Shown: positions 2,108 to 63,830 of the stretch, piece by piece
How the letters are laid out: each line of letters opens with the position of its first letter
Numbering within the stretch: position 1 is the stretch's first letter
Source: Dehalococcoidia bacterium
GTDB lineage: Bacteria > Chloroflexota > Dehalococcoidia > Lucifugimonadales > UBA3495
Length of the DNA stretch: 64,000 nt
Direction of reading: 5' to 3'
NCBI GenBank assembly: GCA_965262485.1
Contig: OZ253540.1
Span: forward strand, 2,660,182 to 2,724,181
Translations under genes and position numbers: made by a program
The notes under the pieces: generated by a model
What the model was told of the DNA's origin: nothing
Seen by the model: only the letters and a program-made list of their open reading frames with translations
The model's database searches: none

Positions 2108-2128
2108 CAGTGTTACACTGGCAGCATC

Positions 2129-2509
2129 GTGGAGAGTTGGTGGCAAAGGCCGTGGGTGCGCTTTCACGCAACTATCGCACCGTTCGGAATTTTTGCGACA
2201 ATCCTGCTGTTGACTTGGTGTTTGGAGCAGTGGCAATGGCAGGGTCGGGTCAGTTGGGAGATGTCAGCGTCAATAGTTGACTTTGGGGCGGTGCTGTACG
2301 CGATGGCTGCCGTGGCAGTCGAAAGGAGTGTTGTACTTATGCTATGGGCGTTGGAACAGAGGAAGCAATGGCGGGCGAAGAGACGAGCCGAGACGTGGGC
2401 TGAAGTGCGTGATCAAGCTCGAGCCGAGGAGAAGCCGGAGATTGCGGCATGGCTGGAGCGCGCGGCTCAGGGGAAAGGCATTACTCTGGCTGGTTCGCCG
2501 CCGCGGTAA
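2129..2509 (+). CDS. Small membrane protein, paralog of 19479..19919
   Basis: Two hydrophobic segments and charged C-tail; shares PFG, LYxxAAVAxE and ML(W/Y) with the 19.5 kb ORF. Confidence 0.7.
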   Translation: MESWWQRPWVRFHATIAPFGIFATILLLTWCLEQWQWQGRVSWEMSASIVDFGAVLYAMAAVAVERSVVLMLWALEQRKQWRAKRRAETWAEVRDQARAEEKPEIAAWLERAAQGKGITLAGSPPR

Positions 2510-2539
2510 GGCAATTGGCATGGACCAGAGGCCGGAACA

Positions 2540-2773
2540 ATGGAATTCACGGTAACGATTGACCGGGATGAAGACGGCATCTGGATTGTGGAATGTCCGT
2601 CTATACCGGGCTGTGTCAGCCAGGGCGATACTAAGTATGCGGCCCTCGCCAACATCCGGAAGGCCATTGCACTTTGCATTGAGGTACGGGCTGAACAGGG
2701 CCTGCCCCTGACCGTTGAGACGCGGCAAGTGGAAGTGGCCCGGAATGTCGAGTTGAGTGGATGCTTGACGTAG
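2540..2773 (+). CDS. hicB: HicB-family antitoxin (no adjacent HicA)
   Basis: DEDGIWIVECPSIPGCVSQGDT..ALANIRKAI HicB signature. Confidence 0.88.
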   Translation: MEFTVTIDRDEDGIWIVECPSIPGCVSQGDTKYAALANIRKAIALCIEVRAEQGLPLTVETRQVEVARNVELSGCLT

Positions 2774-2786
2774 GTGGTTTGGAAAG

Positions 2787-5330
2787 ATGGAACTGAAAGA
2801 GTACCAAACCCGCACCCTTGATGTTTTTGAACGCTGGCAGAATGAATTGACGGCGGCGGAGCAGGAAACGCGGGAGGACATTGCGTACTACGAAGGTCGC
2901 GGGCGAACTGCCCCTGCAGATGTCCACAACTACCCGAAAACGGCCTGGCAGAAAATGGCCGCGACCGGCGAGGTGGCATCCAGCGCCAGACCGTATGTTG
3001 ACCGCACCGCCGACGCCGGCTTTCCCATCCCTCATGTCTGTTTCAAGGTTCCCACGGGTGGCGGCAAGACGCTGCTGGGCGCTGGGGCGCTGGAACGACT
3101 GAACAGGAGCAACGGGTTGGTGCTTTGGATGGTGCCCAGCAACGCCATCTACCTGCAAACCAAAGCGGCGCTGTGGGACCGGCAGCATCCCTACCGCCAG
3201 ATGCTGGAGCGGGGCAGCGGCCGGCGCGTCAAGATGCTGGAAAAAGACGACCCTTTCACCGCCGCCGATGTCGAGCACTACCTGTGCGTGATGCTCATAT
3301 CATTGCAGTCCGCCAACCGTAAGAGTAAAGATTTTCTGCGGATATTCCGCGATTCCGGGCGCTACGCCTCGTTCTTTCCCGATAATGACGACGTATTGAG
3401 CGATGCGCGCCTGCGCAGCATATACCCCGACCTTGACCCGCCCGGCGACGACCGACTAGTTGCGCAGAGCCTGTTCAACGTGCTGAAGATGCAGCGTCCG
3501 GTAGTCGTTCTGGACGAAGCCCACAAAGCCTATGGGCGACAAGAGAAAAACACCGATGAGTTTGTCCAGTCCATCAACCGCCTTAACCCGAGCCTGGTAA
3601 TCGAGCTATCGGCCACACCCAGCTCTTCCAAAAGCAATCTGCTGGTGGATATAAAGGGCAATGATCTGAAGACCGCGCAGATGATTAAGCTACCGGTACG
3701 AGTAACTTCTTTCGCCAACGCAGATTGGGGGCATACTCTGGGCCAGGCGCACGCCAAATTGGAAGAATTGGATAACGAAGCGGTGTCCCTGCAGTACAGC
3801 GAAGGGCGTTATATCCGCCCGATTGCGGTGGTGCGAGTCGAACGCACCAGCCCCGATCAGATCAACAGTGACCTCGTCCATGCTGAGCACGTGCGGGCAT
3901 ACCTGACGCAGAACCTGGGCGTTCCCAATGACGCCGTTGCCGTACAATCCAGCACCACCCGGGAGTTGGCGGGCGTTGACCTGCTATCCGAATTTTCACC
4001 GATACGATGGATAATCACGCGGGCCGCCTTGATGGAGGGCTGGGATTGTCCTTTTGCCTATCTGTTGGTCATGCTGGACAACACCAGCGCCAGGCGGGCT
4101 ATTACGCAGTTGGTGGGACGGGTAATGCGTCAACCCCACGCCCGTATCACCGAGAGAAAATCTCTGGACCAGTGCTACGTCTATTGTCAGGATACTAGCG
4201 TGAACGCCGCCGTGCAGTTCGTCAAGGACGGACTCGAACAGGAAGGGATGGGCGATCTGGACGATGACGTGTACTCGGATCAGACGACGACTTTCAAAAC
4301 CGTTCCCATCCATCGCCGCCGAGAGTTCAAGGACAAGGAGTTCTTCCTGCCCAAAGTGCTGCACCGGGATGCCAGTGGCGGTTGGGAGGAATTGGATTAT
4401 CAGAGGCATATTCTACCCGGCATAGACTTGGACAAAATTGATGCTCCCGATCCTCAAAGCGCGCAGGCAGACCGACCGCGCGAGGAAACGGCAACGGTTG
4501 ATTTAGGAGACAGTGGCGCTTCTGCTACCTTTTACAATGCCCAAGCATTGTTTGTTGATGAAAGTGTCAAAATCGCCTGGTACGCTCGCGGCATTTCAGA
4601 CATTTTGCCCAATCCATTTCAGGCGGCTCGCGTTGTCCGAGATCTGGTGCAACATATGTATGATGCCGGAGACGACGCCAAATCAATTTACGGCCAGCGT
4701 TCCGCTTTAGCGTCGCAGGTGCGCGAACACGTAGCGAAAGCTATGGACCGTCAGGCTGAGCAGGTCTTTCGCGCCAAGTTGGCCAGTGGGGAAATCCGCT
4801 TTGACCTCGAAGCCAGCGACTGCAATCACCGTATGTGGAAGTCACGCGAAATACTGGTTTCCGACAACGACGTTCTGTTACAGCGTTACGGGCAGTCCGT
4901 ACAGTTGAGTCTTTTTGAGCCGGTGTTCGACCGAAATTTTAACGACCTGGAGCGTAGATTCGCTTTTTACCTCGATGAGCAAAAAGCATTGCAGTGGTGG
5001 CACCGGGTGGCAGTCAGGCAATATGGCGAGTATTACCTGCGCGGCTGGCGTCGGGAACGCATCTGGCCGGATTTTGTGGCGATGGGGGGCGAAACTAACG
5101 GCAAGCCCAGTATGTTGGTATTTGAAACCAAAGGCGAGCACCTAAACGGCAACGACGATACCGAGTACAAAAAGCGCGTATTCAACGCCCTTGAAGAGAC
5201 CTTCAATGCCGGTAAGATGACCATTCACGACGGGCCGGCCAAAGGCGTCTTCCGACTAGTATTTGACAAAGTGGGTTTCCCGGACGCCGAAACCGCCCTC
5301 AATAAATTGAAGGGCGTTTATACTCCCTAG
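2787..5330 (+). CDS. res: Type III R-M restriction subunit (Res): SF2 helicase plus PD-(D/E)xK nuclease
   Basis: MELKEYQ, PTGGGKT, LDEAH, SAT, EGWDCP, QLVGRVMR, C-terminal WPDF..FETKG. Confidence 0.92.
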   Translation: MELKEYQTRTLDVFERWQNELTAAEQETREDIAYYEGRGRTAPADVHNYPKTAWQKMAATGEVASSARPYVDRTADAGFPIPHVCFKVPTGGGKTLLGAGALERLNRSNGLVLWMVPSNAIYLQTKAALWDRQHPYRQMLERGSGRRVKMLEKDDPFTAADVEHYLCVMLISLQSANRKSKDFLRIFRDSGRYASFFPDNDDVLSDARLRSIYPDLDPPGDDRLVAQSLFNVLKMQRPVVVLDEAHKAYGRQEKNTDEFVQSINRLNPSLVIELSATPSSSKSNLLVDIKGNDLKTAQMIKLPVRVTSFANADWGHTLGQAHAKLEELDNEAVSLQYSEGRYIRPIAVVRVERTSPDQINSDLVHAEHVRAYLTQNLGVPNDAVAVQSSTTRELAGVDLLSEFSPIRWIITRAALMEGWDCPFAYLLVMLDNTSARRAITQLVGRVMRQPHARITERKSLDQCYVYCQDTSVNAAVQFVKDGLEQEGMGDLDDDVYSDQTTTFKTVPIHRRREFKDKEFFLPKVLHRDASGGWEELDYQRHILPGIDLDKIDAPDPQSAQADRPREETATVDLGDSGASATFYNAQALFVDESVKIAWYARGISDILPNPFQAARVVRDLVQHMYDAGDDAKSIYGQRSALASQVREHVAKAMDRQAEQVFRAKLASGEIRFDLEASDCNHRMWKSREILVSDNDVLLQRYGQSVQLSLFEPVFDRNFNDLERRFAFYLDEQKALQWWHRVAVRQYGEYYLRGWRRERIWPDFVAMGGETNGKPSMLVFETKGEHLNGNDDTEYKKRVFNALEETFNAGKMTIHDGPAKGVFRLVFDKVGFPDAETALNKLKGVYTP

Positions 5331-50477: not shown

Positions 50478-50665
50478 GGCGTCATCGCTCCCTGTGAGGT
50501 TTGAGCCCGACAATGGCCGGGCGAGTTACGCCAGTTTCCCACGCCGGCGCAAACTGGGCAAGCACCCAACCGCACAAGGATCATCCTGCGCCCGTCGAAT
50601 GGCCCCCTGTAACGGTGGGGAGCGCCGCGGTTGACATCCCCGGCGTTTCCGGGCATGTTGCCTCC

Positions 50666-51904
50666 ATGCGTGCGTTGCTGGCGGGTACTTCCGGGGTGGA
50701 CAAAGGCGTTGTCATCTCCAACCTGATCGCCAGGCTGGCCGCCCACGGCGATATCCCCCGCGACACAGGCGGCGCAAATTCCGACGCCAATCCGCGCCAT
50801 GTGCTGGTGGCCAACGTCGAAGACATCATGGCCGAGCAGGGCGACGATCTGGCCAGCGCCCTGTCATCCTTCCGTCCGCGCTACCAACTGGCGGCCTGGC
50901 AGCGGGCTGGCCGGCGTATCTCCCAACAGCTGGAGTCAGCCGACCCTCACCACTGCCTCATTGCCGCCCACCTCACCTACTACACCAGCGGCCGGCAGTT
51001 TTCGCTCATCGACGTTCCCACCATCCGCCGCTGGCGACCTGACTGCATCATCACGCTGGTGGACGACATGCTGGACATCCACGCCGCCATGCAGCGCCGC
51101 GACGCCGACCAGCACACCAACTTCCGCCTCCGCCTTCGCGAGATCCTGGCCTGGCGCTCCGCCGAAATCGCCATGGCCGATCTGCTCGCCCGCAACCTCT
51201 ACGAAATGCGTACAATCCCCCACTACGTGGTGGGGGTCAAGCATCCCGCCGAAATGCTCTACCGGCTCATCTTCCGCCGCCGTCAGTATCCCCTGGTGTA
51301 TTCCAGCTTTCCCATCACCGCCGTCCGTGACGATCCGGACCTGCGGAGCAGGATCGACGACATCCGCAATGAGCTGCACCGCCGTTTCATCGTTTTCGAC
51401 CCCCTGACTCTCGACGAAGGAACGCCCCAGGTATTCGCCAGGGCCCAGGCCGCAGTGTCCGACGCAGTCCCCGAGATAACCGTCTGCGAGCACGAAGCGC
51501 GCTGGCCGATGGAGATAGCCGGTACGCTCAGCGACGGACGCCCTCCTGCTTACCCCATGACCCTCGACCCGCAGGAGGCTCTGGAAGTTTGGGACGATCT
51601 GGAGAACCAGATTCGTCATCGCGACCTCACCATGGTTGAGCAGGCCCAGTGCATCGCCGCCTACCGCATCACCATGGGCGGTCGGCTGTCCACCGGCATG
51701 TACTCTGAGTTGCTGTACGCCACGCACACCGCCGAGCCGGCCCGTCCCGTGCTGATGTATGCCGACCCGTCGGATAACGGCCTTGATCACCCCTTTCTCC
51801 GCAACTTCAATCACCGTACCTTCCACTCCCTAGACGACTGGTACGATGCCGTCAGCCGCATCGGCCCCGCCCCCGACCCCGAAGCCCAGCAACCGCTGTT
51901 CTAG
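50666..51904 (+). CDS. Archaeal-type adenylate-kinase-like P-loop domain fused to a nucleoside 2-deoxyribosyltransferase-like domain
   Basis: GTSGVDK P-loop, H, IITLVDD, WRSAE; then VYSSFPIT, VFDP, RDL, STGMYSELLYA. Confidence 0.65.
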   Translation: MRALLAGTSGVDKGVVISNLIARLAAHGDIPRDTGGANSDANPRHVLVANVEDIMAEQGDDLASALSSFRPRYQLAAWQRAGRRISQQLESADPHHCLIAAHLTYYTSGRQFSLIDVPTIRRWRPDCIITLVDDMLDIHAAMQRRDADQHTNFRLRLREILAWRSAEIAMADLLARNLYEMRTIPHYVVGVKHPAEMLYRLIFRRRQYPLVYSSFPITAVRDDPDLRSRIDDIRNELHRRFIVFDPLTLDEGTPQVFARAQAAVSDAVPEITVCEHEARWPMEIAGTLSDGRPPAYPMTLDPQEALEVWDDLENQIRHRDLTMVEQAQCIAAYRITMGGRLSTGMYSELLYATHTAEPARPVLMYADPSDNGLDHPFLRNFNHRTFHSLDDWYDAVSRIGPAPDPEAQQPLF

Positions 51905-51939
51905 GGCTAACTTCGCAGGGGAAAACCCCCCGTCCCCTG

Positions 51940-52230
51940 CCGCGGCCCAAAATCCTGTCCATCCTGCCTACCCATGTCGGATTCGGCTCCCCTCTCCCAG
52001 TGGGAGAGGGGCCGGGGGTGAGGGCCGTGCCCCCGACTGAAGCCCACCCTTGCATTTCGAGAAGCGCCCGCTCATCCCGATCTTGTCGAGGGACGTGGTA
52101 ATCCCGTTACGCACAACACCCAAAAATCCTGTCCATCCCGTCCATCCTGTTCATCCAGGTAAAAACCCGCCCCGTCCCCCGTTCGTCCTGAGCCTGTCGA
52201 ACGATCATCCTGTTCATCCATGTTGGATTC
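51940..52230. repeat. Mosaic of family E (AATCCTGT(C/T)CATCC), B and C palindromes
   Basis: Several repeated units; shares a block with 24590-24650. Confidence 0.72.
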
Positions 52231-52272
52231 GGCCCCCATCTCCCCATACGCCATACGCCGCCGTCGCCCGTG

Positions 52273-52301
52273 TTGACGCCGGCCCCCTATGTTGCGTAAA
52301 A
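52273..52301 (+). promoter_or_regulatory. Putative sigma70 promoter of iscA
   Basis: TTGACG..TAAAAT about 40 nt upstream of ATG. Confidence 0.45.
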
Positions 52302-52341
52302 TTGCATCATTATCAACTTCCTGTCAGGGGGTGACCAATTT

Positions 52342-52698
52342 ATGCCTATCACACAGAACGGCGTTGAGCTGTCCGTTGAGATTTCGGAAAAGGCCGCCGA
52401 GAAAATCAAGTATTTCGCCGATAAAGAAGGGATCATGGGTGACGTGGGCCTGCGGGTGGCGGTAAAGGGTGGGGGCTGCTCCGGTCTCACCTACGACCTT
52501 ACCATCACCGGCGAGGAGCGCGAATCCGACAAAATCGTCGAACAATATGGTGTCAAGGTCATGGTGGACAAAAAGTCCTACATCTACATCGTTGGCACCC
52601 AGCTCGACTTTTCCGACGGGCTGAACGGCAAGGGCTTCATATTCGAAAATCCCAACGCCAAAAAGGCTTGTGGCTGCGGCACCTCATTCGCCGTCTAG
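52342..52698 (+). CDS. iscA: Iron-sulfur cluster A-type carrier (HesB/IscA)
   Basis: VKGGGCSGL.Y, NPNA..CGCGTSF. Confidence 0.93.
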   Translation: MPITQNGVELSVEISEKAAEKIKYFADKEGIMGDVGLRVAVKGGGCSGLTYDLTITGEERESDKIVEQYGVKVMVDKKSYIYIVGTQLDFSDGLNGKGFIFENPNAKKACGCGTSFAV

Positions 52699-52784
52699 TT
52701 GCATTGAAATCAAGGGGGTAAGCGACCCTCACCCCCCGGCCCCTCTCCCACCGGGAGAGGGGTTTTACGTTTCGGAGGTTGGAG

Positions 52785-53819
52785 ATGACCGCTTTTGCCA
52801 CTGATTCACACACCGCCGCCGAGTTCCAGGCCGCCACCGAGCGGGCCGCCGTTTACCCTGACGACGCCGGCATCCTGCTCCTCACCGGCGAGGACGCCCG
52901 TGACCTGCTCAACCGCCTGTCCACCAACCTGATCGATCCGGACGCGCCCGCCGGCGAGATCACCGTGACCGTGCTCACCAGCGACCGCGGCCGCATCGTC
53001 GACCTGGTATGCGTCATCCACTGCGGAGACCACCAGATCATGCTCACCAGCCCGGGCCAGCAGCAGAACGTCATCGACTTTCTGGACAAGTACACCATCA
53101 TGGAAGACCTGGAGATTGAGGACATCACCGACCAAACCTCCCTGCTGAGGCTGACCGGACCGGACGCCGCCGGCATTTTGGGCCGGGTACCGCACGATGG
53201 TGCCCTGGTGGTAGAGCATCCGACCGACCGCGACGATCCGGAACGCCTGCCCACCCGTTACCTGCTGTCCGACGACCCTGACGCCGCCGCACGCATCTCC
53301 GCCGCCCTGGAATCAGCGGGCGCGGTGAGCATCAGCGCGGAGACCGCCGAGACCCTGCGCATCGCCCAGCGCCGGCCGGCGTACGGCCCCGAGATGAGCG
53401 ACACCTACAACCCGTTGGAGGCCGGCCTGATCGGCGCCATCGACTTCCACAAGGGTTGCTACATCGGCCAGGAGGTTATCGCCCGGCTGGACACCTACGA
53501 AAAGGTGCAGAAATACCTGGTCGCCCTGCACTTTCAATCCGATTACGACGGTGTCGACAATCTCGCGGAGACGCTGCCCGACTCCCGGTTGGTTGACGCG
53601 GACGGAAAGGCGATGGGGCTCGTTACATCGGCAGCGGTCGTACCCACAGCGGACGGCGCCGGCGTCATCGGCCTCGGTTACGTCCGCACCGCCGCCGCCA
53701 AAATAGGCAACGCGCTCAGCGTCACCACCCCCGACGGCGAGGCCATCAGCGGCCTGACGGCTCACATCACGGCGCAACCCCAGCTGTTCGGCGGCGAGCA
53801 ACCACCCCTCAGCGCCTGA
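52785..53819 (+). CDS. ygfZ: YgfZ/GcvT-like folate-binding protein
   Basis: KGCYIGQEVIAR signature. Confidence 0.88.
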   Translation: MTAFATDSHTAAEFQAATERAAVYPDDAGILLLTGEDARDLLNRLSTNLIDPDAPAGEITVTVLTSDRGRIVDLVCVIHCGDHQIMLTSPGQQQNVIDFLDKYTIMEDLEIEDITDQTSLLRLTGPDAAGILGRVPHDGALVVEHPTDRDDPERLPTRYLLSDDPDAAARISAALESAGAVSISAETAETLRIAQRRPAYGPEMSDTYNPLEAGLIGAIDFHKGCYIGQEVIARLDTYEKVQKYLVALHFQSDYDGVDNLAETLPDSRLVDADGKAMGLVTSAAVVPTADGAGVIGLGYVRTAAAKIGNALSVTTPDGEAISGLTAHITAQPQLFGGEQPPLSA

Positions 53820-54068
53820 GTTGCACCCTGCTCCGCAGCCGTGTCCGCCACCTGCTGACGCATGGCACCCCGATGGGCCACATGCTCAAGCGGCTGGCCC
53901 GCCCATCCATCACGCCGGCGCTGACTTACCTGGAATTAGTGGCCGACCCGGCCGGGAGCGTGGCGGCGGTACCGTGAATAAACGAGGATGAATGGCCGAA
54001 GTTACGAATGAATCGCAATTGCAAGGCTGTTCTGTATTTCGCTCGCCGTTGTTCCCGGTCTAGGCACA

Positions 54069-54811
54069 TCATCTGAATTGTCGATTGACGCAGACGGGGC
54101 AAGAACACGGCGCACCCCTCGAGAGGTGAGCTAATCCGTGTAGCGCGTTTTCGTCCCTATCGAACTTGTGCGCGATCCGGTCGAAGTCGCCGGTGAGCTT
54201 TGAATTGAACCTTCCAAACACCGCATTGGCACAAAAATCCGCGTATTGCAACAGGCGCGTGTCCCTGGCTGGTGCGAAATATGGGATATCAGTGACGTTG
54301 TGAAGGTTACGCCACTGATGCGCTAGAATCGCTAATGTCTTGGCTGAACTCGACTGGGCCAACACAATGAGTCCGCGTTGTTCTTCTCTATTGGCAGCGC
54401 CTGCTTGACGATTTATCCGGCCCATGAATAAATCGAACCTGCTGACCAAATCCTCGAACGCGATTTCATAAGGGTCTCTACGCTGTACCCTAGCATACTC
54501 CATCTCGACGGCACAAGCAAATAGCACTGCGGATCTGCTGCCAATTATGTCGTAAATTCGGCTTTCAATTCCGCACGCTGGTCAGGCGCTAATTCGTCCC
54601 AAGGGGGTTCAACCTTATCTCCGGCCTTGGTCCGCAATCGCGTCGCGTGAAAGAAAACGGGGTCGGTTTTCTCAGGGAAGTATTTATGTTGCACCGCTTC
54701 CAAGTCTTGACCGAACCAGTAGATTTCGCGCTCAAACACGGCGAGGCCGGCCAATACAAAGTAACTTGCTTTGCCATGAGCTCCCGATTCATCTAGATAG
54801 AGGATGTACAT
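54069..54811 (-). CDS. DUF3800 (RNase H-like) protein, 1-nt frameshift near 54555
   Basis: MYILYLDESG, FVLAG, FHA, LLQYADFCANA; one extra A (GAA ATT TAC GAC) fuses the two ORFs. Confidence 0.82.
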
Positions 54812-54869
54812 AAAAAAGCAGTCGGCTGAAGCGGAGCTTCACCGGGCTTAGCTAGCAGCCCTACCGACT
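54812..54869 (-). ncRNA. Three-way-junction leader RNA upstream of DUF3800
   Basis: AGUCGG/CCGACU closing stem, GGGCU/AGCCC and UGAAGC/GCUUCA arms, then GC-U6-AUG. Confidence 0.65.
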
Positions 54870-54875
54870 AATGTT

Positions 54876-54904
54876 AGGCTATCAACTGCCCTCCCATTTG
54901 TCAA
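54876..54904 (-). promoter_or_regulatory. Sigma70 promoter of the RNA-DUF3800 unit
   Basis: TTGACA-N17-TAGCCT; predicted TSS about 54869. Confidence 0.65.
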
Positions 54905-54917
54905 CGCCATGTTAATT

Positions 54918-55098
54918 CTCACGCGTACCCACTTTGTCAAACCAAACTGGCCTACTGTCATTGCGAGGAGCACAGCGACGTGGCAATCTCGTTGAGGTTG
55001 AACACCCGTCGGCAAACCACCATTGCTACGGCGACGAGATTGCCACCCCCGTATCAAGCACGGGGTCGCAATGACAGATTAAAGTGGGTACGCATGAG
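54918..55098. mobile_element. Family A MITE
   Basis: CTCACGCGTACCCACTTT/AAAGTGGGTACGCATGAG ends. Confidence 0.87.
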
Positions 55099-55157
55099 GC
55101 TGTTCGCTTTGTGATACCGCTCCGTCGATGGTAAAATAAGCCTGCATTTGAAATCTT

Positions 55158-55234
55158 GGGCGGTTAGCTCAGTTGGTTAGAGTACTTGCTCGACACGCAA
55201 GAGGTCAGTGGTTCGAGTCCACTACCGCCCACCA
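55158..55234 (+). tRNA. tRNA-Val(GAC)
   Basis: GGGCGGT/ACCGCCC acceptor, D arm, CTTGC-TC-GAC-AC-GCAAG, GGTTCGAGTCC, encoded CCA. Confidence 0.97.
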
Positions 55235-55547
55235 TCGACCATAACCTAGGTCGATGCCTCCCGGGCAGAATCCGGGCCGCCTGCCCCAATGCCTGCCGCA
55301 GACCCCGGCATTGCTCTGGCGGAATCCGCCTCCCTGACCGACACCGCGCCTTTTGCCAACGGGCTGATCCCATCCGGCTCAACACGGAGCATCGTTCAAG
55401 CCCTGAATCCACGCCCCAACTGCACAACCTCCCGACAGGTTGACGTGGCTCCGTAGATTTGAGTATTCTTGCCCCTACAGGAATATCCATTTTCGAGACT
55501 GTTCCGGGCGCCACAGGGTCGGGAACTTGTTACAACGAGGGAGATTT

Positions 55548-55958
55548 ATGGTAAAGCAGGGTGTGGTACCCGACGATCTTACGAAACCCTTTTTTGATGC
55601 CGCCAACGAAGAGCGACTATGCCTCCAGAACTGTAGCGCGTGCAGCCGGCTGCAGCATCCGCCCGCTGCGGTGTGCGCCCAATGCCGCTCCGCCGACAAC
55701 CTGGAGTGGAAAGACGTGAACGGGCGCGGCGCCATCTATAACTACGGTGTCGTCCACGACTGCCCGGTTGGGTCGCTCAAAGAGGACCTTCCCTTCAACC
55801 TGGCCGTAGTCATGCTGGAAGAAGACCCCGGCATCCAGTTCTATTCCCACCTTCCCGGAACTCCGGTGGACGACGTACCCGTCGGAGCCGCGGTTCAGGT
55901 GGTGTTCGAGGCAACCGCAAACGGCCAGAAAGTACCCGAGTGGCAAGTCATTGGCTAA
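55548..55958 (+). CDS. DUF35 Zn-ribbon/OB-fold protein
   Basis: PFFDAA, QNCSAC..HPP..CAQC, LPFNLAVV.LEEDP. Confidence 0.9.
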   Translation: MVKQGVVPDDLTKPFFDAANEERLCLQNCSACSRLQHPPAAVCAQCRSADNLEWKDVNGRGAIYNYGVVHDCPVGSLKEDLPFNLAVVMLEEDPGIQFYSHLPGTPVDDVPVGAAVQVVFEATANGQKVPEWQVIG

Positions 55959-56006
55959 CCACCACGATATTTGCACACTGTAAGCCTTCGCAACTAGGAG
56001 TTAACC

Positions 56007-57338
56007 ATGACCACACAGATGGCTCCAGAATCCATGTACCGGTCCAGAGAGGGCATGGGAATTTGGGAACACCGCGGCAAGGTCGCGGCCGTCGGCATCG
56101 GCCACTCTCCCACCGCACGCCGCTGGGACGGACGCCCCGAAACTTCGGTGGGCGCCAACAGCATCCTCGCCCTTCGCAAGGCCATCGACGACGCCGGCGT
56201 CTCTCCCGACCAGGTCGACGGCATCGTTCTGGTTCCGGTTACCACCACCGGCGCATATTGGCCGTCGGACACTCCCGTTCCCATGGATGTGGTGAACGCC
56301 TTCAATCCCACCGATGACCCGTTGGACGGTATCGGCCAACTCAGCGCTGAGTGGATCCTCAAAAACATGCCCGAGCTAACCAACGTCAAGTTCACCATGT
56401 ATGCGCCAGGCTGCATGTCCGCCGCCTGCGTGGTTGCCGCACAGGCCGTCGGCGCTGGCCTCACCAGCACCTGCCTGGTGCTCAAAGGCTGGCATAACCT
56501 GGAAGGCCGCTATAACCACGGCGGTATCAGCGCCGCCGACGAGGTTCCCGGATCCTTCGCTATCAGCCCGGGCCGCACGCTTTGGGGCGCCCCCGGATGT
56601 TACGGCACCGCGTTGCAGTTCGCCGAGTACTGCCGCAAATACGGCAAGCACCACGACATGATGGCTCCGTTCATGCAGAACTCCCGGCGCAACGGCCTGC
56701 TGTTCCCCGAGGGATACTGGGCGCAGCACCGTCCCGAGCAGCTGCTTCCCGAAGACTACCTGGCGTCGCGCTGGATCGCCAAGCCGGCCAACCTCTTCGA
56801 TAACGACATCCCGATCATGACGTCCGCGGCCTACCTCTTCACCACCGCCGACCGGGCCCAGGACATGCAGCAAAAGCCGGTTTACATCCTCAACCATGCC
56901 TCCAGCCGCGGCACGCCCCGAAGTCTCACCCCCACGCTGGAAGAGATACAGGCCGAAACTGGCAGTACCGGACGGAAGATCTATGAGGGCGCCGGCATCA
57001 CCGCTGACAACCTCTCCTTTGAGAATATGTACGACGGTTTCGCCCAGTTCCACCAGTTCCATATCGAGGGCCTGGGTTACCGGGGCATGAAGTTCGGGGA
57101 CGCCCTGGACTTCTACCAGACCGACATCAGCATCGAGGGGCCAAACCCCATCCTGCCCAGTGGCGGCAACATCGGCAGCGGCCGCAGCCGTTTCTGGATG
57201 CACACCGATTGCATCCAGCAGATTCAGGGCCGGGCCGGCGCCCGCACGCTCACCGGCGTAAAGCCCGAGATTGGCGTCTCCGGCGGCCCCATGCCCATGG
57301 GCGGCAACTATACCGTGTGGAGCGTTTCCCCGGACTAG
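56007..57338 (+). CDS. Divergent thiolase-fold protein
   Basis: KVAAVGIG, YDGF, PSGGNIG.G, IQQIQGRAGAR; paired with DUF35. Confidence 0.82.
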   Translation: MTTQMAPESMYRSREGMGIWEHRGKVAAVGIGHSPTARRWDGRPETSVGANSILALRKAIDDAGVSPDQVDGIVLVPVTTTGAYWPSDTPVPMDVVNAFNPTDDPLDGIGQLSAEWILKNMPELTNVKFTMYAPGCMSAACVVAAQAVGAGLTSTCLVLKGWHNLEGRYNHGGISAADEVPGSFAISPGRTLWGAPGCYGTALQFAEYCRKYGKHHDMMAPFMQNSRRNGLLFPEGYWAQHRPEQLLPEDYLASRWIAKPANLFDNDIPIMTSAAYLFTTADRAQDMQQKPVYILNHASSRGTPRSLTPTLEEIQAETGSTGRKIYEGAGITADNLSFENMYDGFAQFHQFHIEGLGYRGMKFGDALDFYQTDISIEGPNPILPSGGNIGSGRSRFWMHTDCIQQIQGRAGARTLTGVKPEIGVSGGPMPMGGNYTVWSVSPD

Positions 57339-57477
57339 ACCCGACGCTTCTCCACATCCCAGCATCAAACTGAATTTAGATGAGAGCCCGGCCCGGCCAT
57401 CCTGGTCACCGGGCCTCATTCGGGAAACGGCGCCCAACCCTGGCGTACACACCATCAACTTCAAGTGAGGAATCAAT

Positions 57478-57855
57478 TTGGCGATACTGATCAGTTTTGA
57501 TATCGACGGCACTCTGGAGGTGGGAGACCCGCCGGGCGTTTTGACCATGGATATGGTCCGAATGGTCCAGGAAAAGGGATTCCTTATCGGCAGTTGTTCC
57601 GACCGGCCAATGAGCGGCCAGCAGGCTATCTGGGACCAGCACAACATACCCGTACATTTCGTCGTCCCGAAACACCGGCTCCCGGAAGTGAAAGCGAAGT
57701 TCGAAGCGGACGTTTACTACCACATCGGCGACCGGGAAGACCTGGACAAAAAGTACGCGCTGGAAGCGGGATTCGAGTTCCTGTGGCCCGACGAAGCTGC
57801 CGAAATGCCGTGGTTCCTCTCCGATACCGCCCCCGGAGACCCTTCCCCAGCCTGA
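57478..57855 (+). CDS. Small HAD family hydrolase
   Basis: ISFDIDGTL, HIGD..D..A..AGF. Confidence 0.85.
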   Translation: MAILISFDIDGTLEVGDPPGVLTMDMVRMVQEKGFLIGSCSDRPMSGQQAIWDQHNIPVHFVVPKHRLPEVKAKFEADVYYHIGDREDLDKKYALEAGFEFLWPDEAAEMPWFLSDTAPGDPSPA

Positions 57856-58079: not shown

Positions 58080-61000
58080 GTGAAAACTAAAATCGCAGCA
58101 TCCCTGGTTTTTGTCGGTGTGGCCGTCCTGGTTGCCGTCGCGGCCTATCTCACCCAGCTCTCCCCATCCCCTCCGGGCGATAGCGATCCCGACGCCGTCG
58201 TCTATTCCGGACGGCTGGACAGCTACCTGGCGGTAGCCCCGGCCGTTTTGCGCGCCGGCCAGACCGAAAACATCTCCGTCTCCCTGTTTGATGGCGCGGA
58301 GCCGGCTCAGGGCGCCGTCCGGCTGGCGCTGATGCAGGATGGCGTCCCCGTGGCGCAAACCACCGAACTTGTCCAGGGCGCCGCTTCGGTTCCTTTCCCC
58401 GTACCCGCATTGCCCTCCGGCGATTACGACCTCCACATCGTCAGCAGCGGCGACAACGGAACGCAGTTTGAGGACACCGCCAGCGTATCCGTGCAAAACC
58501 CGACCATACTGTTCCTGCAGACCGACAAGCCAATCTATCGCCCCGGTCAACAGATTCACCTGCGCGTCCTCCGGCTGGACCCCGATCTCAAACCCGCGCC
58601 GGGTCCGGTAACCGTCGAGATTCAGGATGCAAAGGGCAACAAGGTGTACCGGCAGGAAACCGATGCCGATGAGTTCGGCATGGCCACCGCTGACCTGCCC
58701 TTGTCCACCGAACCCAACCTCGGCGTCTGGAATATCACCGCATCATCGGGCGAGCAGACCACGCAGCAGGACGTGCGCGTCGAACAATACGTCCTGCCCA
58801 AATACGAAATCACCCTCGATCTTCCCCGGTCATGGGTGCTGGCCAGCGATCCCGTCGTCGGCACCGTTTCTGCCGAATACAGCTTCGGCAAGCCGGTGCG
58901 GGGCGAGGTCGAAATCATCGCCTCCCGTTACGTGGGCGTATGGGAACAGTACGCCGTCTTCACCGATGAAATTGACGGCTCCGTTTCCTTCGAACTCCCC
59001 CCAGTCGGATACGTGGCCGGCGTCCCCGCCGCTGGCGGTCAGGGCAACCTGCAGCTCGACATCACCGTGCGCGAACCATCCACCGGCTACCTGGAACGCT
59101 CCACGGAGCTCCTCACCGTCGCTGAAACACCGGTGAACCTGCAGTGGATACCGGAAAGCGGAGCGTTCAAACCCGGCCTGCCCTTCTCCCTGCTCATCGT
59201 CGCGGAAACTCCCGATAATCGCCCCGTCGACTCGGACGTGAATGTAACCCTGCAATTTTTCGACCGAAATTTGAACCGCATCAGCCAGGAATCCTTCGAC
59301 GTAACCGCATCGAACGGCAAGGCGCTTGTCGAGATAGAGCCGCCCGATGACGCGGTCACCCTCACCATTAGCGCATCTTCACCCAATACCTACGCTGCCA
59401 TCACCCTCCCGGCCAGCTATTCGCCGACCGGCAACTTCATCCACGTGGAGCAAACCGGCGCCGCCCGGCTCGATGTCGGCCAGCAGGCCAGCTTCTTTAT
59501 TCACTCCACCGGCGAAGCCAGAAACTTCTACTACGAGGTCGTGTCGCGCGGTCGCGTGGTCTTTTCCGACGTTTCCCAGTCTCCCGACATATCCATCGCC
59601 CTCACGCCGGAAATGTCCCCGTCTTCCCGGCTGCTGGTGTACCAGATTCTCCCCGACAACGAGGTGGCTGCCGATTACATACCCTTCTCCGTATCAGCCA
59701 GCTATCCCATGCCCGTCGATGTCGGTTTCAGCGCCGCCGAAGCCCGCCCCGGCGATCCGGTGGATATTCAACTAAACACCCAGGGCCCGGCCAAAGTGGG
59801 CCTGGCCGTCGTTGACCGCTCCGTGTTCATCCTCGCCGAAAACCGCCTCAACCTGCAGCAGGTATTCTCGGAACTCGAACGCCTCTACCTGCAACCCCGC
59901 GTCGAGGCGCACTACGCCGACTGGCCCGGCGATGCCAAAACCAGGGGTTCTTCCGAGGCTTTCACCGAGGCCGGCCTGGTGGTAATGACCGACAAAAATG
60001 TTCCCGATGGCATCGAGTACGGGCGTCGGGAATCCTGGTGGATTCGCTGGCTGTTCGGCTCTCTGGCCGGCGTGGGCGGCATGGCTGCCGTCGGAAGCAT
60101 CGGCGCCGGCGTGATGGAGTTTCGGCGTGGCGGGCGCAAAATCAGATATGCGCTATTCGGACTCGCCCTGCTGCTCAGCGTCGGCCTCATGGTCGGCTGC
60201 GGCGGGTATGCGTCAGAAGAGTCTGTTGGTATGGCGGCAATGGCCCCCGTGCCGGCGTCGGGCGCCGCCGCTGCATCCGGTAGCGCCGCCGCTGCATCCG
60301 GTAGCCTCGCCGACGTCCAGCGCGTGCGCCAGTACTTCCCCGAAACCTGGCTGTGGACCGACGTTATGACCGACGCATCCGGTCAGGCCATCCTGCCGGT
60401 GGAAGCCCCCGATAGCATTACCACCTGGATGCTCCGCGCCGTTGCCATGTCCCCCGAACACGGCCTGGGTGTGGCCGAAACCGAGCTCACGGTGTTCCAG
60501 CCCTTCTTCCTTCAGGTTGACCTGCCCTACTCCGCCATCCGTGGCGAGGAATTTCCCGTCAAGGTCGCCCTCTATAACTACCTGGAAACCCCGCAGGACT
60601 TCTTCGTCGAACTCGACGAATCGGAAGATTATGAACTGCTGGGCGAACGTACCCAGGTGGTTAGCGTCGCGCCCAACCAGGTCGGCGGCGTTGAATTCGA
60701 CATCCGCCTGACCCGGCTGGGCAGCCTGCCCATCGAGGTAACCGCCCGCAGCAGCGATTCAGCGGATGCCGTCATCCAAACCCTGCTCGTCGAACCGGAA
60801 GGCGTCGCCAGGGAATCGGTGGACAACGCCATCCTGTCCGGCGGCGACCGGCGCGATTTCCAGATCATTCCGCATCCCGACGAAATCCCCGGCTCCGACC
60901 GCGCCTACGTCGTCCTCACCGGCAGTTACCTGAGCCAAACGCTGGAAGGACTCGAGAACCTGCTCCAGATGCCCTACGGCTGCGGCGAGCAGAACATGAT

Positions 61001-62366
61001 CCTGTTTGCCCCCAACATCTTTGTGGCCCGCTACCTCCAGGAAACCGGCCAGCTCAAACCCGAGGTGATGGCCACCGCCGAACACTTTATGACCACCGGA
61101 TACCAGCGGGAATTGACCTATCGCCGCAACGATGGCAGTTTCTCAGCCTTCGGCCAGTCAGATTCTGAGGGCAGCCTGTGGCTTACGGCATTCGTTCTCA
61201 AGTCCTTCGCCCAGGCCGACGGCCTCATCTATATCGATTCCGCCGTGCAGGATCAGGCCATGCAGTGGATACTCTCCCACCAGCGCGGCAACGGCTCATT
61301 TGAGCCCGTCGGTTTCGTGCATCATAGCGACCTGCTGGGGGGCTTGCAGGGCAACACCGCCCTCACCGCCTACATCGCCATCGCCCTCCGGGAGGCCGGC
61401 GAAACCGGCCAGTCCGCAAACGCGCTGCAATACCTGGAAGGTCGGCTGCCAGACATCGACGACCCCTACACCATGGCCATCGTCGCCTACGCCCTGGCCC
61501 TGGGCAATAGCCCGCGCGCCGGCGATGCCCAGCAACAGTTGATGTCCATGGCGACCAGCGACACCAGCGGCCTGCACTGGCAGCACTCCGCCGCCGTCGA
61601 AACCACCGGATATGCAACCCTGGCCCTCCTGGAGAACGGCGACCTCGTCAGCGCCGCTAACGCTGCCCGTTGGCTGGTCTCCCAGCGCAACGCCTATGGA
61701 GGTTACAGCTCTACCCAGGATACCGTTGTGGGTTTGCAAGCCCTCATCCGGTTCGCCGCCCAATCCAAATTCGACGTCGATATGACCATCGATCTATCTG
61801 TAGGAGACTGGAACCGGAGCGTCGTTGTCGATGAAACCAACGCCGACATCGTCCAGGTCCTGGAGCTGCCCCGGGGAACCGACCTGAGAGTCGCCGCAGC
61901 AGGCGACGGGCAGGTCGTCGCCCAGGTGGTGCACCGATTCAACCTCCCCGAGGTTCAAACCTCCTCCCCTGAGACGTTCCACATCGACGTTACGTACAGC
62001 GCCGACCACGTCCAGGTGGACGATATTATTGAGATTACCGCCGCTCTGGCGTTTGTCCCGACCACGCCGCTGGATGCCGGCATGATCGTGCTCGACGTTG
62101 CGGTTCCCACCGGTTTCGCCGCGGAGGTGAACACGGTGCGGGAGCTGGTGCAGGCCCATAAGCGGGTGAAACGCTACGAGATCGCCGGTCGCAAGGTAAT
62201 CCTGTACATCGAAGAGCTCAAGGCCGGTGACGAGATGTCGCTGCGTTTTAACGCCCGCGCCCGGTATCCTGTGCGCGCCCAGCCCGTAACATCCGAGGTC
62301 TATTCGTACTACAACCCCGACTGGCGCGGCGAAACCCTGGGCGCCAGCGTAACCGTATCCAACTAA
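58080..62366 (+). CDS. Alpha-2-macroglobulin / thioester protein, animal CD109/TEP-like
   Basis: QTDKPIYRPGQ, YVLPKYE, YFPETWLW, PDSITTW, MPYGCGEQNM thioester, DGSFSAFG, WLTAFV, STQDTVVGLQAL. Confidence 0.94.
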   Translation: MKTKIAASLVFVGVAVLVAVAAYLTQLSPSPPGDSDPDAVVYSGRLDSYLAVAPAVLRAGQTENISVSLFDGAEPAQGAVRLALMQDGVPVAQTTELVQGAASVPFPVPALPSGDYDLHIVSSGDNGTQFEDTASVSVQNPTILFLQTDKPIYRPGQQIHLRVLRLDPDLKPAPGPVTVEIQDAKGNKVYRQETDADEFGMATADLPLSTEPNLGVWNITASSGEQTTQQDVRVEQYVLPKYEITLDLPRSWVLASDPVVGTVSAEYSFGKPVRGEVEIIASRYVGVWEQYAVFTDEIDGSVSFELPPVGYVAGVPAAGGQGNLQLDITVREPSTGYLERSTELLTVAETPVNLQWIPESGAFKPGLPFSLLIVAETPDNRPVDSDVNVTLQFFDRNLNRISQESFDVTASNGKALVEIEPPDDAVTLTISASSPNTYAAITLPASYSPTGNFIHVEQTGAARLDVGQQASFFIHSTGEARNFYYEVVSRGRVVFSDVSQSPDISIALTPEMSPSSRLLVYQILPDNEVAADYIPFSVSASYPMPVDVGFSAAEARPGDPVDIQLNTQGPAKVGLAVVDRSVFILAENRLNLQQVFSELERLYLQPRVEAHYADWPGDAKTRGSSEAFTEAGLVVMTDKNVPDGIEYGRRESWWIRWLFGSLAGVGGMAAVGSIGAGVMEFRRGGRKIRYALFGLALLLSVGLMVGCGGYASEESVGMAAMAPVPASGAAAASGSAAAASGSLADVQRVRQYFPETWLWTDVMTDASGQAILPVEAPDSITTWMLRAVAMSPEHGLGVAETELTVFQPFFLQVDLPYSAIRGEEFPVKVALYNYLETPQDFFVELDESEDYELLGERTQVVSVAPNQVGGVEFDIRLTRLGSLPIEVTARSSDSADAVIQTLLVEPEGVARESVDNAILSGGDRRDFQIIPHPDEIPGSDRAYVVLTGSYLSQTLEGLENLLQMPYGCGEQNMILFAPNIFVARYLQETGQLKPEVMATAEHFMTTGYQRELTYRRNDGSFSAFGQSDSEGSLWLTAFVLKSFAQADGLIYIDSAVQDQAMQWILSHQRGNGSFEPVGFVHHSDLLGGLQGNTALTAYIAIALREAGETGQSANALQYLEGRLPDIDDPYTMAIVAYALALGNSPRAGDAQQQLMSMATSDTSGLHWQHSAAVETTGYATLALLENGDLVSAANAARWLVSQRNAYGGYSSTQDTVVGLQALIRFAAQSKFDVDMTIDLSVGDWNRSVVVDETNADIVQVLELPRGTDLRVAAAGDGQVVAQVVHRFNLPEVQTSSPETFHIDVTYSADHVQVDDIIEITAALAFVPTTPLDAGMIVLDVAVPTGFAAEVNTVRELVQAHKRVKRYEIAGRKVILYIEELKAGDEMSLRFNARARYPVRAQPVTSEVYSYYNPDWRGETLGASVTVSN

Positions 62367-62777: not shown

Positions 62778-63830
62778 ATGGCAGACCGCATCGCAATCAT
62801 GGGACCCGGCGCCGTGGGCAGCTATGTCGGCGCCTTCCTGGTCCAGGCTGGCGACGACGACATCACTTTTATCGATATGTGGCCCGAGCACGTGGAGAAA
62901 ATGCGCACCGTGGGCCTGCGCGCCAGCGGCAGCCAGGGCGACTTCACTGTCCCCGTCAACGCCATGCACCTCACCGAGGCGCAAAACATCACCGAACCAT
63001 TCGACTACGCCTTCATCACCGTCAAGTCGTACGACACCGAATGGGCCACCCATTTCATCAAGCGCTACGTCAAGGACGATGGAGCCTTCGTTTCCATCCA
63101 GAACTGCTGGAACGACCCGACCATTGCCTCCATCGTGGGGCCGGAGCGCCAGTTGGGTTGTATCGCCTCTCACATCGAGGTTGCCCTCTGGGAGCCCGGC
63201 CACGTCAATCGGGGCGGAGAACCCGGACGCGACCATGGCCACACCGTGTTTCGCGTGGGTGAGAACAGCGGGCAGGTTACAGAGCGTTCCAAGGCCATCG
63301 CCGCCAAACTCGACAATATCGATGCCGCCTACGCCACCGATAACCTGTGGGGCGAGCGGTGGGCCAAGCTCTGCCAGAACGGTATGGGTAACGCCATCTC
63401 CGCCATGAGCAAACTGGGCAGCCAGGAAATGGCCGAAGATTCCCGCATTCGACGCATCCGCATCCAGCTGGCCAAAGAGGGCGCTCAGGTCGGCCTTGCT
63501 CAGGGCCTCCAGGTCGTGGACATCAACGGCATCCCCGCCGAATTCTGGGCCGACGCCGACAAGGGCGACGTTTTCGAAGAACTGGATGGGAGACTGTCGG
63601 AGTCCGGCGGGCGGGTCAACTGGCTGGCTTCCATGGCCCAGGACGTCCACAAGGGCCGCAAGTCCGAAGTCGATTTTATGAACGGTCTCATCTGCGACAA
63701 GGGCCGTGAAACCGGCGTCGCCACCCCTTACCACGACGCCATCGTCGAGGCCATGCGACTGGTGGACAACAAAACCATTGTCGCCGACCCCGAAAACGTT
63801 GACCGTATCGTTCGCGCCATCGGAGACTAA
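62778..63830 (+). CDS. panE: 2-dehydropantoate 2-reductase family
   Basis: GPGAVG, TVKSYD, SIQN, WAKL..N, SMAQDV.KGRKSEVDFMNG. Confidence 0.85.
   Translation: MADRIAIMGPGAVGSYVGAFLVQAGDDDITFIDMWPEHVEKMRTVGLRASGSQGDFTVPVNAMHLTEAQNITEPFDYAFITVKSYDTEWATHFIKRYVKDDGAFVSIQNCWNDPTIASIVGPERQLGCIASHIEVALWEPGHVNRGGEPGRDHGHTVFRVGENSGQVTERSKAIAAKLDNIDAAYATDNLWGERWAKLCQNGMGNAISAMSKLGSQEMAEDSRIRRIRIQLAKEGAQVGLAQGLQVVDINGIPAEFWADADKGDVFEELDGRLSESGGRVNWLASMAQDVHKGRKSEVDFMNGLICDKGRETGVATPYHDAIVEAMRLVDNKTIVADPENVDRIVRAIGD

Follow-up and report, generated by a model that had tools for sequence, protein, structure and literature searches.

Can a signal for lipid attachment, of the kind with which bacterial lipoproteins begin, work in the middle of a large exported protein? 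The question is raised by a gene for a thioester alpha-2-macroglobulin (A2M/TEP family) in a 64,000-nucleotide stretch of the genome of an uncultured Dehalococcoidia bacterium (assembly GCA_965262485.1, contig OZ253540.1, positions 2,660,182 to 2,724,181 of the forward strand), which is called the window below. At the site of its bait this protein contains two membrane-type segments and a 35-residue disordered tether, and the second segment ends in an apparent lipoprotein signal with a lipobox cysteine, C707. Lipoprotein signals are regarded as strictly N-terminal in gene annotation, in signal predictors and in the current picture of the substrates of Lgt and LspA. That the A2M/TEP family has lipid-tethered members is known; what appears to be new is a conserved internal lipoprotein-type signal at the bait, or chain-junction, site. 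We consider the chances evenly balanced that the insert is an internal substrate of Lgt and LspA which yields a lipidated two-chain A2M. The evidence, all of it computational, agrees across several independent lines: the features of the sequence and how far they are conserved, the two enzymes encoded in the genome, and where the insert sits in the fold.

The gene is a single open reading frame, and its GTG start codon is preceded by GAGGA 6 nt upstream. Its product, referred to as the query protein, matches TED_complement (282 bits), A2M_BRD (100), A2M (97), MG2 (90), A2M_recep (63), MG3 (45) and MG4 (27), all above the Pfam cut-offs, and the Pfam matches follow the domain order of the A2M/TEP family (MG, bait-region, A2M, TED and receptor-binding). 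A2M_BRD spans residues 458–585, the A2M domain residues 756–845 and TED_complement residues 948–1224; the segment under study is taken as the bait site because it lies between the first two of these. The features that the argument needs are as follows.

58080..62366, + strand: thioester alpha-2-macroglobulin (A2M/TEP) gene, a single open reading frame of 1428 residues by translation
58080..58157, + strand: N-terminal signal or anchor VKTKIAASLVFVGVAVLVAVAAYLTQ, in which Tyr replaces the lipobox Cys of the relatives
59994..60047, + strand: exposed short stub KNVPDGIEYGRRESWWIR, residues 639–656, of which the NVPxGxEY part aligns with insert-free relatives
60048..60116, + strand: helix 1, WLFGSLAGVGGMAAVGSIGAGVM, residues 657–679, a predicted outside-to-inside membrane span (hydropathy, AlphaFold2)
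60117..60146, + strand: basic loop EFRRGGRKIR, residues 680–689, the predicted cytoplasmic turn and signal n-region
60147..60200, + strand: h-region and lipobox YALFGLALLLSVGLMVG (residues 690–706) followed by C707, the predicted site of Lgt lipidation and LspA cleavage
60201..60305, + strand: Ala/Ser-rich tether GGYASEESVGMAAMAPVPASGAAAASGSAAAASGS, residues 708–742, disordered and hypervariable, probably the true bait
60262..60312, + strand: tandem duplication of a 21-bp unit (AAAASGS twice) in the tether (Tandem Repeats Finder)
60306..60350, + strand: conserved LADVQRVRQYFPETW, residues 743–757, where the fold resumes (invariant residues, structure alignments)
60978..60992, + strand: thioester motif GCGEQ (C968, in the context MPYGCGEQNM), which holds the only Cys besides C707

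An earlier sequence-only reading of this DNA had described the segment as a hydrophobic stretch, a basic loop, a second hydrophobic stretch with MVGC and an Ala/Ser linker, and re-translation confirmed this layout. The 21-bp duplication, which the same reading had placed at about 60262–60303, was recovered at 60262–60312 by Tandem Repeats Finder (period 21, 2.4 copies, 93% matches). Helix 1 is directly preceded by W653-W654-I-R, and the Kyte-Doolittle hydropathy in a 19-residue window reaches a maximum of 2.06 over the bait segment. In an AlphaFold2 model of residues 440–860 built on a 55-row alignment, helices are placed at residues 653–673 and 689–702 with a predicted local distance difference test score (pLDDT) of about 40–63; the tether is disordered, with a pLDDT of about 30, and the MG domains on either side are modelled with confidence (pLDDT 80–95). 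In the segment where the fold resumes, R311, F314, P315, E316, T317 and W318 (fragment numbering) are invariant in 55 sequences.

The second segment has the composition of a lipoprotein precursor: an n-region with five Lys/Arg residues (RRGGRKIR), a 17-residue uncharged h-region that ends in MVG, and MVG-C-GG, the codon of C707 lying at 60198–60200. The 4.15-Mb source assembly was scanned for cysteines and hairpins genome-wide. Cysteines were scored with a weight matrix trained on 50 N-terminal lipoprotein signals of the same genome, excluding the A2M frame. The context of C707 scores 18.6 bits, against a leave-one-out median of 17.0 for the true signals, and ranks seventh among the 7,949 cysteines located at least 100 residues into stop-to-stop frames. 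All six cysteines with higher ranks lie 100–175 residues into their frames and look like N-terminal signals with an upstream open frame, the next score below that of C707 is 6.9, and the thioester cysteine receives −51.9. C707 is the sole truly internal cysteine of the 7,949 that scores above the median of true signals. A search of frames of at least 300 residues for internal hydrophobic hairpins with a net-basic loop, whose criteria were modelled on the A2M case itself, gave 47, of which only that of the A2M ends in a lipobox cysteine; no other protein with the same internal module was found among these frames.

The ordinary lipoprotein signals of this genome have similar ends (IVACGG, LIVGCSS, VACGG) and continue into acidic Ala/Pro/Thr linkers, and the commonest pair of residues after their cysteine is GG (19 of 149 crude lipoprotein-signal matches). 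When the insert is compared with the genome by tblastn, its best matches apart from itself are the N-terminal lipoprotein signals of frames that resemble binding proteins. As these matches are weak and composition-like, with E 0.007 at best, a genomic donor of the insert was rejected. Both processing enzymes are encoded, LspA (PF01252, 125 bits) and Lgt (PF01790, 83 and 68 bits in one frame), each above its Pfam cut-off. The sequence-only reading had called the segment a mimic of a lipoprotein signal. Signal-like it is, but the word mimic says too little, for the segment agrees with the signal peptidase II (SPII)-type signals of the genome by every sequence criterion applied. Processing by SPII, offered by the same reading, is backed by this agreement, by the encoded Lgt and LspA and by a cysteine present in all 27 variants described below; the cleavage and the lipidation themselves are what we infer from these data.

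The distribution of the insert was followed in a comparison set of 63 rows (the query, 53 frames from the loci of relatives and nine database proteins) from which duplicate loci had been dropped, some of the remaining rows being almost identical to one another. A hydrophobic hairpin with a lipobox cysteine stands at the bait site in ten rows, the other 53 having a short soluble bait or almost none. The sequence-only reading had stated that its inference would be refuted if there were no membrane or lipoprotein prediction and all orthologues were without the segment; it is indeed absent from these 53 rows, but the near orthologues have it, as do no fewer than five other diverged lineages. In a tree built without the insert columns all ten insert rows fall inside one 14-row Dehalococcoidia clade (SH-aLRT support 100), which also holds four insert-free rows (L019, L020, P0010 and P0013), and L018, which has the insert, is sister to L019, which has none (support 99). 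The tree requires at least three changes of the insert state, at least two of them on starred branches, and the approximately unbiased (AU) test, run with a quick LG+G4 model on a group chosen after the tree had been inspected, rejects the grouping of all insert bearers into a single clade (p 2.8e-7). On the tree and this test one origin retained by all descendants was rejected, and the history may have been either one gain followed by at least two clean losses or a series of separate gains. By its occurrence in the compared sequences the insert is a lineage-specific module.

With the members of the protein clusters added, the insert is found as 27 distinct variants. They come from about six lineages (the query sub-clade, P0007, P0008, L063, L018 and the fragment P0025), and the order of the elements and the cysteine are kept in all 27. 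Helix 1 measures 20–33 residues, the basic loop 1–10 and the uncharged run, ending in [GA]-C, 17–22; the cysteine is followed by GG in 26 variants and by AS in one, and a tether of 35–49 residues leads to the conserved LAEVQRVRQ[YF]FPETW. Identity to the query over residues 630–760 is 44% for P0007 and 35% for P0008, and what is conserved, as far as these alignments tell, is the design and not the letters of the sequence. Most insert-free Dehalococcoidia relatives (L040, L061, L052, L062 and about 25 other loci) have a short aromatic/Gly bait motif, such as GFWEGVWNFFRGxGGMV; it looks amphipathic in sequence and could lie at the membrane surface. P0006, a database relative from the query sub-clade, runs out of frame across the hairpin and once more beyond it, and is probably an assembly error or a decayed copy.

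Selection on the insert was assessed by codon comparison with two orthologues, L017 (93% identical) and L037 (90% identical), in windows set about three residues early, so that the hairpin was taken as residues 654–704 and the tether as residues 705–742, that is from V705 and hence with VGC included. The ratio of non-synonymous to synonymous substitution rates (dN/dS) in the hairpin is 0.24 and 0.18 against the two orthologues, compared with 0.13–0.26 in the flanking MG domains, and the synonymous and non-synonymous changes number 7 and 5 against L017 and 11.5 and 6.5 against L037. The hairpin is under purifying selection. In the basic loop, likewise taken three residues early, all ten residues are identical and there are two to three synonymous changes against L017 and L037. 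The tether window retains identity at 16 of 36 aligned codons (L017) and 18 of 30 (L037), with indels in addition, and the 21-bp duplication is present in neither orthologue; it appears to be one recent change in a fast-evolving tether. Fast evolution is the usual behaviour of A2M baits. The suggestion that the bait itself is embedded in the membrane is thus probably not correct, the fast-evolving and disordered part being the 35–49-residue tether after the cysteine.

The position of the insert in the fold was taken from a phmmer comparison of residues 440–860 with solved structures. The flanks align with CD109, A2ML1, A2M, C5, C3, C4 and insect TEP1, the best match being human CD109 (9fx2/8s3o, E 4e-35); the insert never aligns, and in each structure match the alignment gap coincides with the bait or linker. 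On C3 the N-terminal flank is aligned up to residue 625 of the 643-residue beta chain, and the C-terminal flank from alpha-chain residue 92, which is residue 16 of the alpha' chain; by these alignments the insert corresponds to the A2M bait site and to the C3 beta/alpha junction plus the anaphylatoxin domain. A cut at the insert would therefore be equivalent to the beta/alpha junction. The analogy with two-chain C3 that the first reading had drawn thus holds in topology. As in C3, C4 and C5, a cut here would give two chains, of about 706 and 722 residues, that share MG6. C3 itself is soluble, and a furin-type protease makes its cut, at a tetra-Arg linker; in the query protein signal peptidase II would make the cut, and the membrane would hold both of the resulting ends. 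Pfam detects no ANA domain in the query protein, and it has no furin-type multibasic linker, its basic residues sitting in the predicted cytoplasmic loop.

A further line of evidence comes from the cysteines and the N-terminus. C707 and the thioester C968 are the only cysteines among the 1428 residues of the query protein, and P0008, L018 and L063 have three each, which are the N-terminal lipobox, the internal lipobox and the thioester. Most Dehalococcoidia A2M relatives begin with a lipoprotein signal; many of these end in PGC, a type that our regular expression for N-terminal lipoboxes missed. The N-terminal lipobox is retained beside the internal one in P0007 (AVSC), P0008 (AAVAC), L018 (AAAAC) and L063 (TTAC). 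In the query the position of this cysteine is taken by Tyr23 (codon TAT, 58146–58148), and all six rows of the query sub-clade read LVAVAAYLTQ there, AAY instead of an AAC-type end. Judged from its sequence, the N-terminal segment of the sub-clade may be a simple signal anchor, or it may be cut by signal peptidase I (AVA/A). The N-terminal lipid site has been lost only in a lineage with the internal module, as expected if the module is a working anchor; the loss is one event and hence weak evidence in support of this.

The reading of the insert as an internal Lgt/LspA substrate is favoured because of the quality of the signal, the presence of the enzymes, the conserved design, the economy of cysteines, the selection on the hairpin, its asymmetry, its position, the lost N-terminal cysteine and the likeness to the lipo-invert family considered below. 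By asymmetry we mean that the second segment has 17–22 residues, as h-regions of SPII signals do, versus 24–33 residues for the second helix of those hairpins that occupy this site in other A2Ms and lack a conserved lipobox. As to how such a protein would be made, we infer the topology, the association of the chains and the bait role of the tether in addition to the lipidation and the cleavage. The module would combine a stop-transfer helix, a cytoplasmic basic turn and a complete Sec/SPII lipoprotein signal with its lipobox cysteine. The N-terminal half, from MG1 to the first part of MG6, would be exported until transfer is stopped by helix 1, running from outside to inside; the basic loop would be kept in the cytoplasm by the positive-inside rule, and the second segment, running from inside to outside, would restart export of the C-terminal half with the rest of MG6, MG7, CUB, TED and MG8. 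This would bring the lipobox to the outer leaflet, which is the geometry that Lgt and LspA need, and Lgt would add diacylglycerol to C707 before LspA cuts between G706 and C707. The N-terminal chain of about 706 residues would be held in the membrane by its C-terminal helical hairpin; the C-terminal chain of 722 residues would consist of a lipidated N-terminal cysteine, the disordered tether (35–49 residues in the variants) and the part with the thioester; and the two would stay joined through the shared MG6, like C3 beta and alpha, with the tether as the working bait. The more specific proposal that SPII acts here as a maturation endoprotease on an internal signal, producing a two-chain trap whose two new ends the membrane clasps together, through a hairpin on one chain and a lipid on the other, until a cut in the tether releases the clasp and fires the thioester, we put somewhat short of an even chance.

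If the favoured reading is true, a conserved internal signal in a large exported protein would broaden the substrate picture of Lgt and of LspA, the target of globomycin. It would also mean that the A2M/complement family has arrived at two-chain thioester proteins by another route, independent of the first, with the cut at the structural junction of complement and the bait held at the membrane surface. The endoprotease role proposed for SPII would be a prokaryotic parallel to the furin processing of complement C3, C4 and C5.

Among the known systems, the bacterial lipoprotein A2Ms, such as E. coli ECAM/YfhM and Salmonella A2M, are prokaryotic thioester A2Ms like the query protein, and a lipid tethers them to the cytoplasmic membrane on its outer face, as it would the query protein in the favoured reading; the N-terminal lipobox of most Dehalococcoidia relatives and of four insert-bearing lineages is arranged as in them. 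They differ in having an N-terminal anchor and a soluble bait, where the query would have a second lipoprotein signal in the bait site, and the Pfam domain set of the query (TED_complement, A2M_recep) is eukaryote-like, unlike theirs. CD109 is likewise a lipid-anchored member of the A2M family with its bait at the aligned site, but that bait has no membrane segment, and its anchor is a C-terminal glycosylphosphatidylinositol.

The closest described counterpart of the module, judging by sequence, is the NCBIfam family NF058595 ('lipo-invert putative C-terminal anchoring domain'), which the query protein matches with 18.9 bits against a cut-off of 37, over model positions 31–79, roughly from Cys to Cys. 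Matches above the cut-off occur in 4 of 301 Chloroflexota genomes (G000 included), and a match to the whole model occurs only in G102; the top matches in G057 and G141 cover only the last beta-strand part, model positions 71–113, and the 301-genome tally includes G312, on whose sub-threshold match no claim is based. The true member in G102 (L096, contig C208, frame 1498–3345, − strand) scores 67 bits. Its Ig-like repeats are followed by a helix rich in Trp, the loop GRKRAS, an h-region of lipoprotein type with LGC|AGG, and a two-strand piece at the end; its tail reads LPWLLWLLAVTSLGSLAMF-GRKRAS-LAFGMTMLFALLCLG-C-AGGTGAPAPV, after which about 45 residues follow. Compared by eye, the two modules share the order of helix, basic loop, short h-region, Cys and Gly/Ala/Pro linker; the difference is that the NF058595 module is C-terminal, with those 45 or so residues behind it, whereas that of the A2M is followed by about 720 residues of folded protein. 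Together with the lipo-invert tails, the A2M insert, if it is processed as proposed, would mark out a general and undescribed class of internal Lgt/LspA substrates. The literature search found no paper on an internal lipobox, on the lipo-invert family or on membrane segments in the baits of bacterial A2Ms, its broader queries being judged from listings.

Several points weigh against the favoured reading. The signal is not at the N-terminus of the precursor: it occupies residues 680–707 of 1428, after a 650-residue half and a membrane helix, and 721 residues follow C707. Lgt and LspA are known to act on N-terminal signals, and no report of a natural internal substrate of either emerged from the literature search, as judged from its result listings. 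The AlphaFold2 confidence for both helices of the insert is low, the weight matrix and the regular expressions are rough tools, and the starts of genes are guesses based on open frames. Membership of the A2M in NF058595 was rejected, the score being below the cut-off and equally weak matches turning up in every one of the 14 control genomes. If the bait region were cut constitutively, an A2M-type trap might fire early; that it would not, as in C3, is an assumption. Finally, a plain membrane hairpin stands at the same site in other A2Ms (P0062 and P0146/P0191, with P0098 of doubtful status as to its cysteine), and the hairpin alone can therefore be a functional unit.

This last point leads to the strongest alternative, which we regard as possible, though on the unlikely side: that the hairpin is never cleaved, so that the A2M stays a single chain whose bait loop the hairpin pins to the cytoplasmic membrane, with C707 unmodified or lipidated without a cut, and the stub and the tether together forming the bait. 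Such a topology needs no processing, and A2M traps normally require an intact bait. A hairpin census, which covered 113 checkable representatives of the 149 listed (36 being without the anchor motif), found a hairpin with a basic loop and no convincing lipobox at the same site in three other thioester A2M lineages, P0062, P0146/P0191 and P0098. The hairpins of P0062 and P0146/P0191 contain no cysteine, and that of P0098 contains a doubtful one (GSSSC after a 33-residue helix); at the N-terminus P0062 has a lipoprotein signal, and P0098 and P0146 have anchors. What the uncleaved hairpin leaves unexplained is the retention of the cysteine in all Dehalococcoidia variants of a protein otherwise almost free of cysteine, with GG after it in 26 of 27, as well as the signal-length second segment and the SPII-like score of its context. 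The plain hairpins suggest, on sequence grounds, that tethering of the bait to the membrane is a solution reached repeatedly in prokaryotes, to which the lipobox appears to be an addition specific to the Dehalococcoidia clade.

An internal start, at ATG 60114 (M679) or its equivalents, from which a separate thioester-bearing lipoprotein of about 750 residues would be made with or without the full-length product, had been put forward in the sequence-only reading and now seems improbable. From M679 on, the sequence (MEFRRGGRKIRYALFGLALLLSVGLMVGC) does read like a textbook lipoprotein precursor, and the ATG is kept in all three DNA sequences examined from the query sub-clade, as is M679 in all protein variants of the sub-clade. 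However, in none of the five DNA sequences examined do the 20 nt before a candidate start contain anything like a Shine-Dalgarno motif, whereas the GTG at which the gene itself begins has GAGGA. The ATG occurs only in the query sub-clade, and L018 has no candidate but a GTG within helix 1. Every full-length protein of the four clusters reads through without a break in frame. Helix 1 would be purposeless under this reading, yet it is conserved. A split gene or a fusion artefact was also considered and rejected, as the shorter cluster members break at scattered sites (residues 227, 484, 764, 1113 and others) and none breaks at the hairpin.

It seems very improbable that helix 1 is itself a membrane-embedded bait, cut within the bilayer by a rhomboid or site-2 protease so as to trigger or regulate the trap. 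Richness in Gly and other small residues is a trait of the substrates of both proteases, and helix 1 shows it in the query (7 Gly of 23 residues) and in P0007 (7 of 20); it is an ordinary aliphatic helix in P0008, L018, L063 and P0025, the metabolic neighbourhood of the gene links no such protease to it, and the lipobox would be left unexplained. That the insert is an artefact, from a chimeric assembly or a frameshift, or neutral low-complexity sequence that is tolerated but has no function, would fit its absence from 53 of 63 relatives and its coming and going, seen in the rejection of one clade by the AU test, but is hardly credible for an insert that is in frame in 27 distinct variants from many independent assemblies, is under purifying selection in its hairpin and keeps its design at 35–44% identity.

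The genes on both sides of the A2M gene (window positions 50501–57647 and 62778–63830) are metabolic, with thiolase-like, ChsH2-like OB/zinc-ribbon, GCV_T-like and ketopantoate reductase-like products. A PBP1c-type partner goes with many bacterial A2Ms; neither a PBP1c-like nor a protease partner was found among the eight neighbouring frames scanned. Some close relatives carry C-terminal extensions. In P0004 and P0005 the extension is a PQQ-like beta-propeller (PF01011/PF13360/PF13570, residues about 1430–1770), and L037, whose frame is 1766 residues long, is near-identical to these two propeller-bearing proteins. Leucine-rich repeats are found in the C-terminal extension of P0009, and several of the L070–L077 frames have lengths of 1670–1750 residues.

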